Counted from the stretch's first letter, positions 1,001 through 2,490 are shown. The stretch: 31,624 nucleotides of DNA from Escherichia coli (GCF_003334765.1 NZ_QOWT01000039.1), one strand, 5' to 3'. The notes: generated from the letters alone by a model not told the origin. Translations and numbers: made by a program.

Positions 1001-1382
1001 AAATAACCTGTGATATTTTTGAATTGTTTGTAACAAAATAAATGATACTTGTCTGAAAAACAGATTTACGACGATATAAAATAATAATACTTATATGTTC
1101 GCTGATTTTAAGCACCGAGACTATCCGGTCTTTTACCAAATAATGAAGAATAATCCCTCCCTGGAAGATAATTGTAAAAAACAACAGCATAAGAATTAAT
1201 CTTAGGATAAATTTTTATTTATCATGGCCTTTTGAACGCTGAAAAGTAGCGCTCTGCAAAGTAAACCCCGCTATAGTTATGCTATGCATTTGTCTTTAAT
1301 GATATCTCGTCATTATATTAACAGGATGAAATTATCATTAATGCATATTTCAATATTAGCAGGGATACCTGAGGAGTTTAAA

Positions 1383-2435
1383 GTGAACATATATATCGGG
1401 TGGCTTTTCAAATTAATCCCTTTGATTATGGGCTTAATTTGTATCGCGTTAGGTGGCTTTGTGCTGGAAAGTTCAGGGCAAAGCGAGTATTTCGTCGCGG
1501 GTCATGTGCTGATTTCTCTGGCGGCCATATGCCTGGCATTATTCACTACCGCATTTATTATCATTTCGCAGCTCACGCGCGGCGTTAATACGTTTTACAA
1601 TACATTGTTCCCCATTATTGGCTATGCGGGGTCAATTATCACCATGATATGGGGTTGGGCACTGTTAGCAGGCAATGATGTGATGGCAGACGAGTTTGTC
1701 GCCGGCCATGTTATTTTCGGCGTTGGTATGATTGCCGCCTGTGTATCGACGGTGGCAGCGTCATCCGGTCACTTTCTGCTCATTCCCAAAAATGCAGCGG
1801 GGAGCAAGAGCGACGGAACACCGGTACAGGCTTATTCTTCATTAATCGGTAACTGCCTCATTGCCGTTCCCGTTTTACTCACCCTGCTCGGTTTCATTTG
1901 GTCTATTACGCTGTTACGTAGTGCTGACATAACTCCGCATTATGTCGCGGGTCACGTATTGCTTGGGTTAACCGCAATCTGTGCCTGTCTAATTGGCCTT
2001 GTTGCCACAATTGTCCATCAAACACGTAATACGTTTTCAACTAAAGAACACTGGCTGTGGTGTTATTGGGTTATTTTTCTCGGCTCAATCACGGTACTGC
2101 AGGGGATATACGTCTTAGTCAGTTCCGATGCAAGCGCCCGACTGGCTCCCGGCATTATTCTTATTTGCCTCGGAATGATCTGTTACAGCATATTCTCAAA
2201 AGTCTGGCTACTGGCACTGGTATGGAGACGTACCTGTTCGTTAGCCAACAGAATACCGATGATTCCCGTCTTCACCTGCCTGTTTTGCCTTTTCCTGGCA
2301 TCGTTTCTTGCGGAAATGGCGCAGACCGACATGGGATATTTTATTCCTTCGCGAGTTCTGGTCGGTTTGGGAGCGGTATGCTTTACGTTGTTCTCAATCG
2401 TTTCAATATTAGAAGCGGGTTCTGCTAAAAAATAA
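1383..2435 (+). CDS. yhiM: Inner-membrane protein YhiM (DUF2776 family), 350 aa
   Basis: ORF-track frame 1284..2435. GTG at 1383-1385 with GAGGAG 7 nt upstream gives the known 350-aa length. Highly hydrophobic multi-helix protein with repeated VAGHV motifs. Confidence 0.85.
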   Translation: MNIYIGWLFKLIPLIMGLICIALGGFVLESSGQSEYFVAGHVLISLAAICLALFTTAFIIISQLTRGVNTFYNTLFPIIGYAGSIITMIWGWALLAGNDVMADEFVAGHVIFGVGMIAACVSTVAASSGHFLLIPKNAAGSKSDGTPVQAYSSLIGNCLIAVPVLLTLLGFIWSITLLRSADITPHYVAGHVLLGLTAICACLIGLVATIVHQTRNTFSTKEHWLWCYWVIFLGSITVLQGIYVLVSSDASARLAPGIILICLGMICYSIFSKVWLLALVWRRTCSLANRIPMIPVFTCLFCLFLASFLAEMAQTDMGYFIPSRVLVGLGAVCFTLFSIVSILEAGSAKK

Positions 2436-2451
2436 TTGCAACGTACCGGAT

Positions 2452-2490
2452 AAAACCAGCGTTGACCATTTGCGTAACGCTGGTTTTTCT
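2452..2490 (+). terminator. Intrinsic terminator downstream of yhiM
   Basis: Stem ccagcgtt (2456-2463) pairs with aacgctgg (2476-2483), followed by ttttt (2484-2488). Confidence 0.6.

Follow-up and report, generated by a model that had tools for sequence, protein, structure and literature searches.

YhiM of Escherichia coli: An Inner-Membrane Protein Probably Built from Five Tandem Homologous Hairpins

The inner-membrane protein YhiM of Escherichia coli is very probably composed of five tandem homologous hairpins, which together cover the whole protein. The duplication appears to be ancient, because the units are just 16–29% identical to each other as proteins. A sequence-only reading of the DNA had proposed an internal duplication of a helix-hairpin unit, marked by three motif-bearing helices. 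These helices are present and the duplication itself is supported by the homology of the units at the profile level, but the repeat extends further than was thought, with five units instead of three helices.

The yhiM Gene and Its Flanking Elements

The analyzed window is a 31.6-kb stretch of E. coli DNA, in which the region 1479–2039, assumed earlier to hold the repeat, falls within a single gene on the + strand. This gene was identified by megablast and blastn as E. coli yhiM, located between yhiL and yhiN. Its coding sequence (1383..2435, + strand) begins with GTG, consists of 350 codons and a stop codon, and is backed by Pfam PF10951 and the E. coli annotation. The mechanical open reading frame is longer (1284–2435, 383 aa) and begins at an upstream ATG at 1284. 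The true start is the GTG at 1383, resulting in a protein of 350 aa, because the Pfam coverage, the N-termini of the homologues and the mapped transcription start all point to it. Residues 1–347 align to positions 1–347 of the 348 in the DUF2776 (PF10951) model (Pfam search, E=1.3e-158), YhiM being a full-length member of this family, and all homologues have their MN... N-terminus at the position of GTG-1383. Tramonti et al. (PMC6604978) placed the transcription start 22 nt upstream of this codon, which is the base A at 1361 of the window. Together with a Shine-Dalgarno sequence GAGGAG (1371–1376), identified by sequence reading, this start site occupies 1361..1376 on the + strand.

Downstream of the gene, a 10-bp inverted repeat (AACCAGCGTT / AACGCTGGTT) was read from the sequence at 2454..2485 (no strand assigned), with 12 nt in its loop and a T run behind it. 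Located between the convergent genes yhiM and yhiN, this element is likely a terminator; inverted repeats 3′ of yhiM are also mentioned in PMC6604978. The terminator scan overlooked it owing to the length of its loop, and the terminator and promoter scans of the window added nothing.

The product is an inner-membrane protein with ten long helices, as indicated by hydropathy and by the AF2 model. DUF2776 is a small family: clustered at 50% identity, its members make up 258 clusters in a set of 1.84 billion proteins. NCBIfam has no model for YhiM.

Five Homologous Hairpin Units

YhiM was cut into five hairpins of 62–76 residues, all encoded on the + strand. Unit 1 (U1, residues 1–70; 1383..1592) contains the putative outer helix TM1 and inner helix TM2, which correspond to the AF2 helices 3–30 and 34–64. 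Unit 2 (U2, residues 71–146; 1593..1820) contains TM3 and TM4 (AF2 helices 70–95, 102–130 and 133–139) and unit 3 (U3, residues 147–222; 1821..2048) TM5 and TM6 (AF2 helices 153–178 and 184–215). They are followed by unit 4 (U4, residues 223–288; 2049..2246) with TM7 and TM8 and by unit 5 (U5, residues 289–350; 2247..2432) with TM9 and TM10. The A-G-H found in the first three units has degenerated in the last two, to A-P-G-I-I in unit 4 and to I-P-S-R-V in unit 5, yet both align in register with the others. A long conserved cytoplasmic loop, FLLIPKN..., is also found in unit 2, after TM4.

Self-BLASTP of YhiM against a one-sequence database returned the diagonal only. Smith–Waterman alignment of U1 with U2–U5 gave z-scores of 6–12 against shuffles, with all alignments in register. 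When the reversed partner was used as a null that preserves the hydrophobic blocks, the forward score was higher for 10 of the 10 unit pairs (mean 58 versus 28; Wilcoxon p=0.001). Profile comparison by hhalign, the E-values of which are uncalibrated for TM proteins, gave probabilities of at least 85% for nine of the ten pairs with 96 homologues. When the alignment was deepened to 227 full-length homologues, drawn from several phyla, each of the ten pairs reached 81–99% (E 1.3e-5 to 3.5e-17), in register over 43–65 columns. The best pair was U1–U3 (65 aligned columns, E=3.5e-17), and U1 matched units 2–5 with a probability of 96–99% (E 2e-9 to 3.5e-17). U2 matched U3, U4 and U5 with E-values of 1.3e-12, 1.7e-9 and 1.3e-5, respectively. 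For U4, the probability was 96% with U1, U2 and U3 (E about 1e-9), and U5 was matched to U1 with E=1.4e-11 and to U3 with E=4.9e-10.

Such scores could also reflect the generic composition of TM hairpins instead of common descent, as TM segments inflate scores, the unit identity of 16–29% is low and the E-values lack calibration for this type of protein. Comparisons of single-TM profiles across parity, an odd helix with an even one, were used as an internal null for TM-ness. Same-parity profiles scored 23.9 on average, versus 9.8 (maximum 15.4) for cross-parity profiles (Mann–Whitney p=1e-5), and TM1 and TM7 matched with a probability of 91–95%. In the deeper alignment, all ten even-even pairs (22.7–58.1) scored above all cross-parity pairs (maximum 13.3). 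A purely compositional origin is very unlikely: the block-keeping nulls are lower (28 for reversed partners versus 58), cross-parity pairs do not exceed 13–15 compared with 23–69 for even-even pairs, and the in-register alignments contain position-specific matches of Gly, Cys, Pro and Arg-Gln.

Common descent of the hairpins is also the reading that withstands removal of the motif. The VAGHV peptide and everything N-terminal to it were deleted, and the even-helix remainders were realigned. These still matched position 1 to position 1, with 18–28 columns in register (m2–m6, 96.7%; m2–m10, 95%; m6–m8, m6–m10 and m8–m10, 94%). The odd helices with their turns, which never carry the motif, matched each other as well (o1–o7, 94%; o3–o7, 91%; o1–o9, 82%; o1–o5, 80%), and the 25 cross controls of this test scored at most 13.8. 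A lack of any repeat beyond VAGHV had been named with the earlier reading as a result that would refute it; the persistence of the profile matches without the motif shows the opposite. It also bears on the idea of a convergent short motif, for instance a metal- or proton-binding one, in surrounding helices that are not homologous. The presence of the His motif in only three of the ten helices and the restriction of the DNA similarity to about 14–26 nt would fit such convergence. This explanation is nevertheless highly improbable, since the motif-less U4 and U5 match U1 and U3 at E 1e-9 to 1e-11, a probability of 94–97% is kept over 18–28 columns without the motif, and odd helices that never bore it match each other.

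The VAGHV Motif in DNA and Peptide

The DNA motif GTCGCSGGYCAYGT, or GTCGC(G/C)GG(T/C)CA(T/C)GT, occurs exactly three times in the window, at 1494–1507, 1698–1711 and 1944–1957 (+ strand), and in none of 100 dinucleotide-preserving shuffles. The three copies noticed earlier are thereby confirmed, although their positions, given as 1498, 1699 and 1946, were off by 1–4 nt. They code for V-A-G-H-V at residues 38–42, 106–110 and 188–192, where TM2, TM4 and TM6 begin on the periplasmic side. The peptides quoted earlier were correct too, but their residues had been numbered from the ATG at 1284 and not from the real start, GTG 1383.

The conservation of the motif differs between its copies. In TM2 (V38-A-G-H41-V, 1494..1508, + strand), Gly40 is kept in 221 of 227 sequences, and residue 41 is His in 101 and Pro in 110. 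In TM4 (V106-A-G-H109-V, 1698..1712, + strand), Gly108 and His109 are kept in 224 and 220 of 227, respectively. In TM6 (V188-A-G-H191-V, 1944..1958, + strand), Gly190 is found in 221 of 227, with His191 in 106 and Ser (88) or Cys (21) in its place. The degenerate equivalent in TM8 (A255-P-G257-I-I, 2145..2159, + strand) was located by the unit alignment, and its Gly257 is present in 215 of 227 sequences. The one in TM10 (I321-P-S323-R324-V, 2343..2357, + strand) was found by both the repeat search and the unit alignment, with Arg324 in 215 of 227. The repeat search lengthened the DNA copies to 26 nt, at 65–77% identity, and added a fourth, degenerate copy at 2343–2368. The DNA repeat is a conserved peptide written in similar codons and not a recent DNA duplication, the latter being excluded because the units are only 16–29% identical as proteins.

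A Gly...Cys Signature Common to the Even Helices

Signature conservation was counted over the same number of DUF2776 sequences, 227. The periplasmic start of the even helices follows the pattern [FY]-V-[AP]-G-x-V-L-x-G-L-x-x-I-C. Its Gly (Gly40, Gly108, Gly190 and Gly257) is kept in 95–99% of the sequences, and the unit 5 counterpart, residue 323, is Ala or Ser. Each even helix has one Cys, which is 98–100% conserved. The codons, all on the + strand, are found at 1530..1532 (Cys50, TM2; Cys in 223 of 227), 1740..1742 (Cys120, TM4; 222 of 227), 1980..1982 (Cys200, TM6; 226 of 227), 2181..2183 (Cys267, TM8; 224 of 227) and 2379..2381 (Cys333, TM10; 225 of 227). The spacing to the Gly is ten residues in TM2, TM6, TM8 and TM10 (counted from Ser323 in the latter) versus 12 in TM4, a shift of two residues.

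The sequence-only reading had pointed to conserved His residues. This holds for His109, which is conserved family-wide, but not for His41 and His191, which are clade-specific: throughout the Alistipes clade, the former is replaced by Pro and the latter by Ser or Cys. Their counterparts are Phe, Cys or Ile at residue 258 in unit 4 and the well-conserved Arg324 in unit 5. The family-wide signature is Gly...Cys. The replacement of two of the three His in a large clade also argues against a universal His-based mechanism.

Other residues are conserved at comparable places. In total, seven Cys are near-invariant (20, 50, 120, 200, 267, 302 and 333), of which C20 in TM1 and C302 in TM9 are found at equivalent positions. 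A Pro near the cytoplasmic start is common to odd helices (P13, P163 and P295, with P77 offset). At their cytoplasmic ends, TM2 and TM6 share R-Q-x-x-x-x-F, which gives a family-level basis to the TRGVNTF and TRNTF segments remarked upon earlier. The cytoplasmic loop WRR...LANRIP after TM8 is strongly conserved. The E. coli protein had hinted at a ring of conserved Asp residues in the periplasmic turns; this idea was rejected, as conservation there is limited to the column of residue 33.

On the same helix face as the His, which stands at +1 from the Gly, there are a near-invariant ring of Gly at +5 (G113, G195, G262 and G328) and a ring of small or polar residues at +12 (A52, C120, S/C202, S269 and T335). 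According to helical geometry, the +10 Cys is placed on the face opposite the His. Because of these opposite faces, the four Cys at +10 cannot line one lumen together with the His.

Topology and Predicted Fold

An N-in/C-in topology has been predicted for YhiM (PMC6604978). Of its loop Lys/Arg residues, 11 out of 14 are in predicted cytoplasmic loops, and their distribution supports an N-in orientation for each unit. As each unit has two TM helices, all of them have the same orientation in the membrane, so that any pseudo-symmetry is rotational about the membrane normal. The possible pseudo-symmetric topology noted earlier is supported, with a rotational type of symmetry, as in channels. In comparison, inverted repeats, which are typical of alternating-access carriers (LeuT-like or MFS-like transporters), consist of units in opposite orientation, each with an odd number of TM helices, whereas the YhiM units have two TM helices each, head-to-tail and in the same orientation.

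The AF2 model, calculated from a 96-sequence alignment, has ten long helices, a pLDDT of 92.6 and a pTM of 0.92. It contains repeated units, contrary to the second refuting result named earlier, a predicted structure devoid of them. Foldseek against AFDB50 retrieved DUF2776 members only, with homologues of 41–53% identity at TM-scores of 0.97–0.98, so that the fold is common to the whole family, and no obvious sister family was found there. Ten TM helices are kept in all of the members examined, as is the five-unit signature. The AlphaFold model of YhiM has been described as “based on five central helices” by Albanese et al. (Nat Chem Biol 2024, PMC11288890), who regarded it as the natural model nearest to the parallel alpha-helical barrels of their design study. 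According to the prediction, the hairpins come together as a closed two-layer alpha/alpha ring whose pseudo-five-fold axis stands normal to the membrane; the ring closure, a central pore and its lining residues are suggested by fold matches, by conservation and by this published remark.

The two layers of such a ring would differ in character. The even helices have a mean entropy of 0.39–0.80 and a variability moment of 0.03–0.21 and are rich in small residues; TM10, at 0.39, is the best-conserved helix of DUF2776. H1, H3, H5 and H7, by comparison, have an entropy of 0.89–1.70, a variability moment of 0.38–0.48 and more aromatic residues. H9 is the exception, as it does not have this outer-helix variability pattern. 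Helices that are buried all around should have a low moment, and those with a lipid-exposed face a strong one. Mean-field DCA, a weak signal at an Neff of 79, scored the sequential hairpin contacts best (mean 1.42), followed by the neighbors in an even ring (1.19) and in an odd ring (0.98), against a background of about 1.0. Same-level couplings between even helices (45–114, 114–193, 44–323 and 254–318) were found, including a ring-closing contact between TM10 and TM2. An odd-odd pair, H5–H7, also scores high and is an outlier. From conservation, variability moment and this weak coupling signal, it is reasonably likely that the five even helices form a parallel inner bundle, with the odd helices facing the lipid.

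Comparison with SLAC1/TehA and Designed Helical Barrels

The predicted five-hairpin ring would be a rare architecture, otherwise described for the SLAC1/TehA anion channels and for designed helical barrels. SLAC1 and TehA have ten TM helices arranged as five hairpins that form two layers and show quasi-five-fold symmetry, and their pore is made by the TM-odd helices (PMC11260165, PMC3172217). The ten TM helices of YhiM, arranged as five tandem hairpins with a predicted quasi-five-fold symmetry, agree with this description. In contrast to SLAC1, it is the even helices of YhiM that are conserved and seemingly buried. Furthermore, the SLAC1 pore is gated by a conserved Phe, TehA is a trimer, and the repeat of YhiM, with its Gly...Cys signature, is clear at the sequence level.

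DUF2776 has no solved structure. Neither the YhiM sequence nor the family profile gave a meaningful match when searched against the sequences of the PDB. With the predicted model, Foldseek against the PDB gave TM-scores of 0.4–0.55 for sc-CC barrels and of 0.42/0.46 for TehA. About 249–250 of the 350 YhiM residues align to TehA, and such a partial alignment of ~250 residues is consistent with swapped layers or an offset of one helix. At the sequence level, the Pfam SLAC1 family (PF03595) has no match in YhiM up to an E-value of 10. The DUF2776 profile gave an hhalign probability of 0.1% with E. coli TehA and of 0.3% with a 113-sequence TehA alignment that is shallow (81–100% identical), and single-hairpin YhiM profiles stayed below 1% with the latter. 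The alternative that YhiM is a very distant SLAC1/TehA (TDT) member, with odd helices lining an anion pore as in TehA, is very unlikely, in view of the missing PF03595 match and the hhalign values (the second one from a shallow profile), and because the helices that form the pore in SLAC1 are the odd ones, whereas the even ones seem buried in YhiM. YhiM resembles a SLAC1-type five-hairpin ring in its architecture, but its membership in the SLAC1/TehA family cannot be demonstrated.

The proteins sc-CC-5 to sc-CC-8 (8qag, 8qah, 8qai, 8qkd) are de novo designed single-chain barrels of parallel coiled-coil alpha-helices, and these and further designed repeat or toroid proteins (8u1a, DHR81 5cwq and 6xr1) can be likened to YhiM. 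The predicted YhiM corresponds to a single-chain barrel, in which inner parallel helices are joined by outer helices. The designed barrels are soluble, idealized and evolutionarily unrelated, whereas YhiM is a natural membrane protein. Its loops are also asymmetric, unlike those of the designs, with a long loop after TM4 and WRR...LANRIP after TM8.

Proposed Explanation and Possible Function

It is proposed that an ancestral hairpin, in which the odd TM helix would run outward and the even one back, gave rise to five tandem copies of the same orientation. This duplication would predate the spread of DUF2776 across Proteobacteria, Actinobacteria, Bacteroidota and Fusobacteria. The hairpins would then close into a ring, the even helices forming the inner bundle and the variable, aromatic-rich odd helices the outer layer. 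An unrelated sequence family would thus have arrived at a SLAC1/TehA-type architecture with the layers swapped. From the periplasmic side, the axis would present a ring of His41/His109/His191/Ile258/Arg324, followed by rings of Gly and of small polar residues or Cys. Overall, the five-hairpin repeat with its predicted ring is considered, with good confidence, to be the best explanation.

On the basis of the model, YhiM may tentatively be seen as a conduit that resembles a channel or facilitator, or as the carrier of a ligand or metal site on the central axis. A channel or facilitator is suggested because the repeats are parallel and not inverted, and a conserved inner bundle rich in small residues points to a conduit or a binding site on the axis as well. 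Such a function would be in line with the reported dependence of GABA export on YhiM and with the phenotypes concerning acid, osmolarity and copper. A yhiM deletion mutant exports about half as much GABA at pH 5, overexpression raises the export over the range of pH 2.5–5.5, and a YhiM homologue of C. perfringens is encoded between gadB and gadC (PMC6604978). In the UPEC strain CFT073, deletion of yhiM results in strong Cu resistance, less accumulated Cu and an active Cpx response (PMC11005409). The published YhiM phenotypes are indirect and strain-dependent.

The gene context was compared in six lineages (Bordetella, Microbacterium, Hansschlegelia, Alistipes and two metagenomic ones). There are no shared neighbor genes and no gad genes beside these homologues, the gene being stand-alone. 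Without common neighbors, the context gives no support for any substrate.

A serious rival, even if a doubtful one, is that the ring is a scaffold and that YhiM acts as a membrane-embedded sensor or regulator, or as a thiol or metal binder that damps CpxA, the effects on GABA and Cu being indirect. Cpx is activated, independently of NlpE, when YhiM is lost, and CpxAR is required for the mutant to resist Cu (PMC11005409). The seven near-invariant Cys and the conserved cytoplasmic loops (WRR...LANRIP) would suit such a role, and a five-helix core so rich in small residues may pack too tightly to leave room for a pore. On the other hand, overexpression raises GABA export at pH 2.5–5.5 (PMC6604978), the family is found in phyla without CpxAR (Actinobacteria and Bacteroidota), and no partner gene is conserved nearby in the six lineages.

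A more specific form of the conduit, and an unlikely one, would be a natural single-chain five-helix-barrel channel, its axis lined or flanked by a ladder of near-invariant thiols (Cys50/120/200/267/333, with Cys20/302 on outer helices). It would bind or conduct a thiophilic species, for instance Cu(I), or gate a pore for small solutes (GABA) through thiol or His chemistry. In enterobacteria, this reading adds a periplasmic ring of His41/His109/His191 and Arg324. If true, it would explain the lower copper content and the copper resistance of the yhiM deletion, and DUF2776 would be a new channel class, convergent on the SLAC1 architecture with swapped layers.

Significance

As the model of YhiM with five central helices is already in print (PMC11288890), the novelty of the fold is modest. 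Neither the sequence repeat nor the Gly...Cys signature is described in that paper or in the YhiM/DUF2776 literature searched, and the papers mentioning DUF2776 within it report no repeat structure or function for the family. Added here are the sequence-level proof of the repeat, the Gly...Cys signature, the clade-specific nature of His41 and His191, the likely swap of layers compared with SLAC1 and a set of concrete residues for testing.

Four phenotypes have been published for YhiM; they concern survival in acid, growth when the temperature is high and the osmolarity low, the export of GABA, and copper/Cpx signaling. The repeat reduces its 350 residues to one template of roughly 70 residues with few position-equivalent, near-invariant residues. 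The key ones are a Gly and a Cys in each inner helix, together with His109 and Arg324. It also predicts a rotational, channel-like symmetry rather than the inverted-repeat symmetry of transporters. DUF2776 would be a second natural family, unrelated in sequence, with the five-hairpin two-layer architecture exemplified by SLAC1/TehA, which is of relevance for the evolution of membrane proteins and for the design of helical barrels.

Allelic variation of yhiM

The yhiM gene is dimorphic in E. coli. It is present in 5379 of the 5426 complete genomes, of which ~4250 carry an allele resembling that of the window (at least 95% DNA identity), while in ~1129 genomes a second allele is found, with a DNA sequence only ~80% identical to that of the window. 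This split represents an unusually deep divergence for a chromosomal gene of E. coli. The protein encoded by the divergent allele is 90% identical. The yhiM region concerned is 1340-2435 in the window and 2499-3563 in L015, a locus of another E. coli strain. Upstream of yhiM, both yhiJ and yhiL are missing in the one example examined.

Genomic surroundings

In the window, a yhiL-like ORF of 328 aa with a TTG start is located at 50-1036 on the minus strand. At this position, strain 005008 encodes a YhiJ/YhiL family protein of 535 aa, and in the strain of the window the gene has probably been truncated or become a pseudogene. In several E. coli strains, an IS1 element has inserted between yhiL and yhiM, directly upstream of the yhiM promoter region; an example is locus L001 (6158-6855). 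No IS1 is present in the window between these two genes (~1100-1383).

On the other side, yhiM faces yhiN in convergent orientation, and the stretch between the two genes contains an inverted repeat (2454-2485) with perfectly matching arms of 10 bp and a loop of 12 nt, after which comes a T run. This is likely a terminator common to both genes. It was not picked up by a consensus terminator scan because of its loop length.

Additions in DUF2776 homologues

A few homologues contain long, low-complexity insertions or extensions. P0183 has an insertion of ~95 residues in the cytoplasmic TM4-TM5 loop, and P0131 and P0196 end in C-terminal tails of 130-150 residues. All these additions are on the cytoplasmic side and leave the ten-TM core unaltered.

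The N-terminus of YhiM

In-frame ATGs precede yhiM at 1284, 1326 and 1341 (extension 1284-1382), resulting in a mechanical ORF of 383 aa, and some database entries (P0001, P0003) are 361-364 aa long. These longer forms are probably mis-annotations, since all three ATGs are upstream of the transcription start, which maps to A1361 of the window according to the published account (PMC6604978).

An “MXXXM copper motif” has been described in UPEC YhiM (PMC11005409). The motif reads MEFKM in L015 (2499-2513) and MGFKM in the protein entry P0002, the matching stretch of the window being 1371-1385. Its second Met, the position of the RefSeq CDS start, aligns to the GTG start in the window and to Met1 of all homologues. 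The motif appears to be an in-frame upstream ATG, four codons ahead of the canonical start. Deletion of “XXXM” would restore the canonical YhiM N-terminus, yet change the region where translation initiates, and the partial phenotype published for this deletion could therefore be an expression effect.
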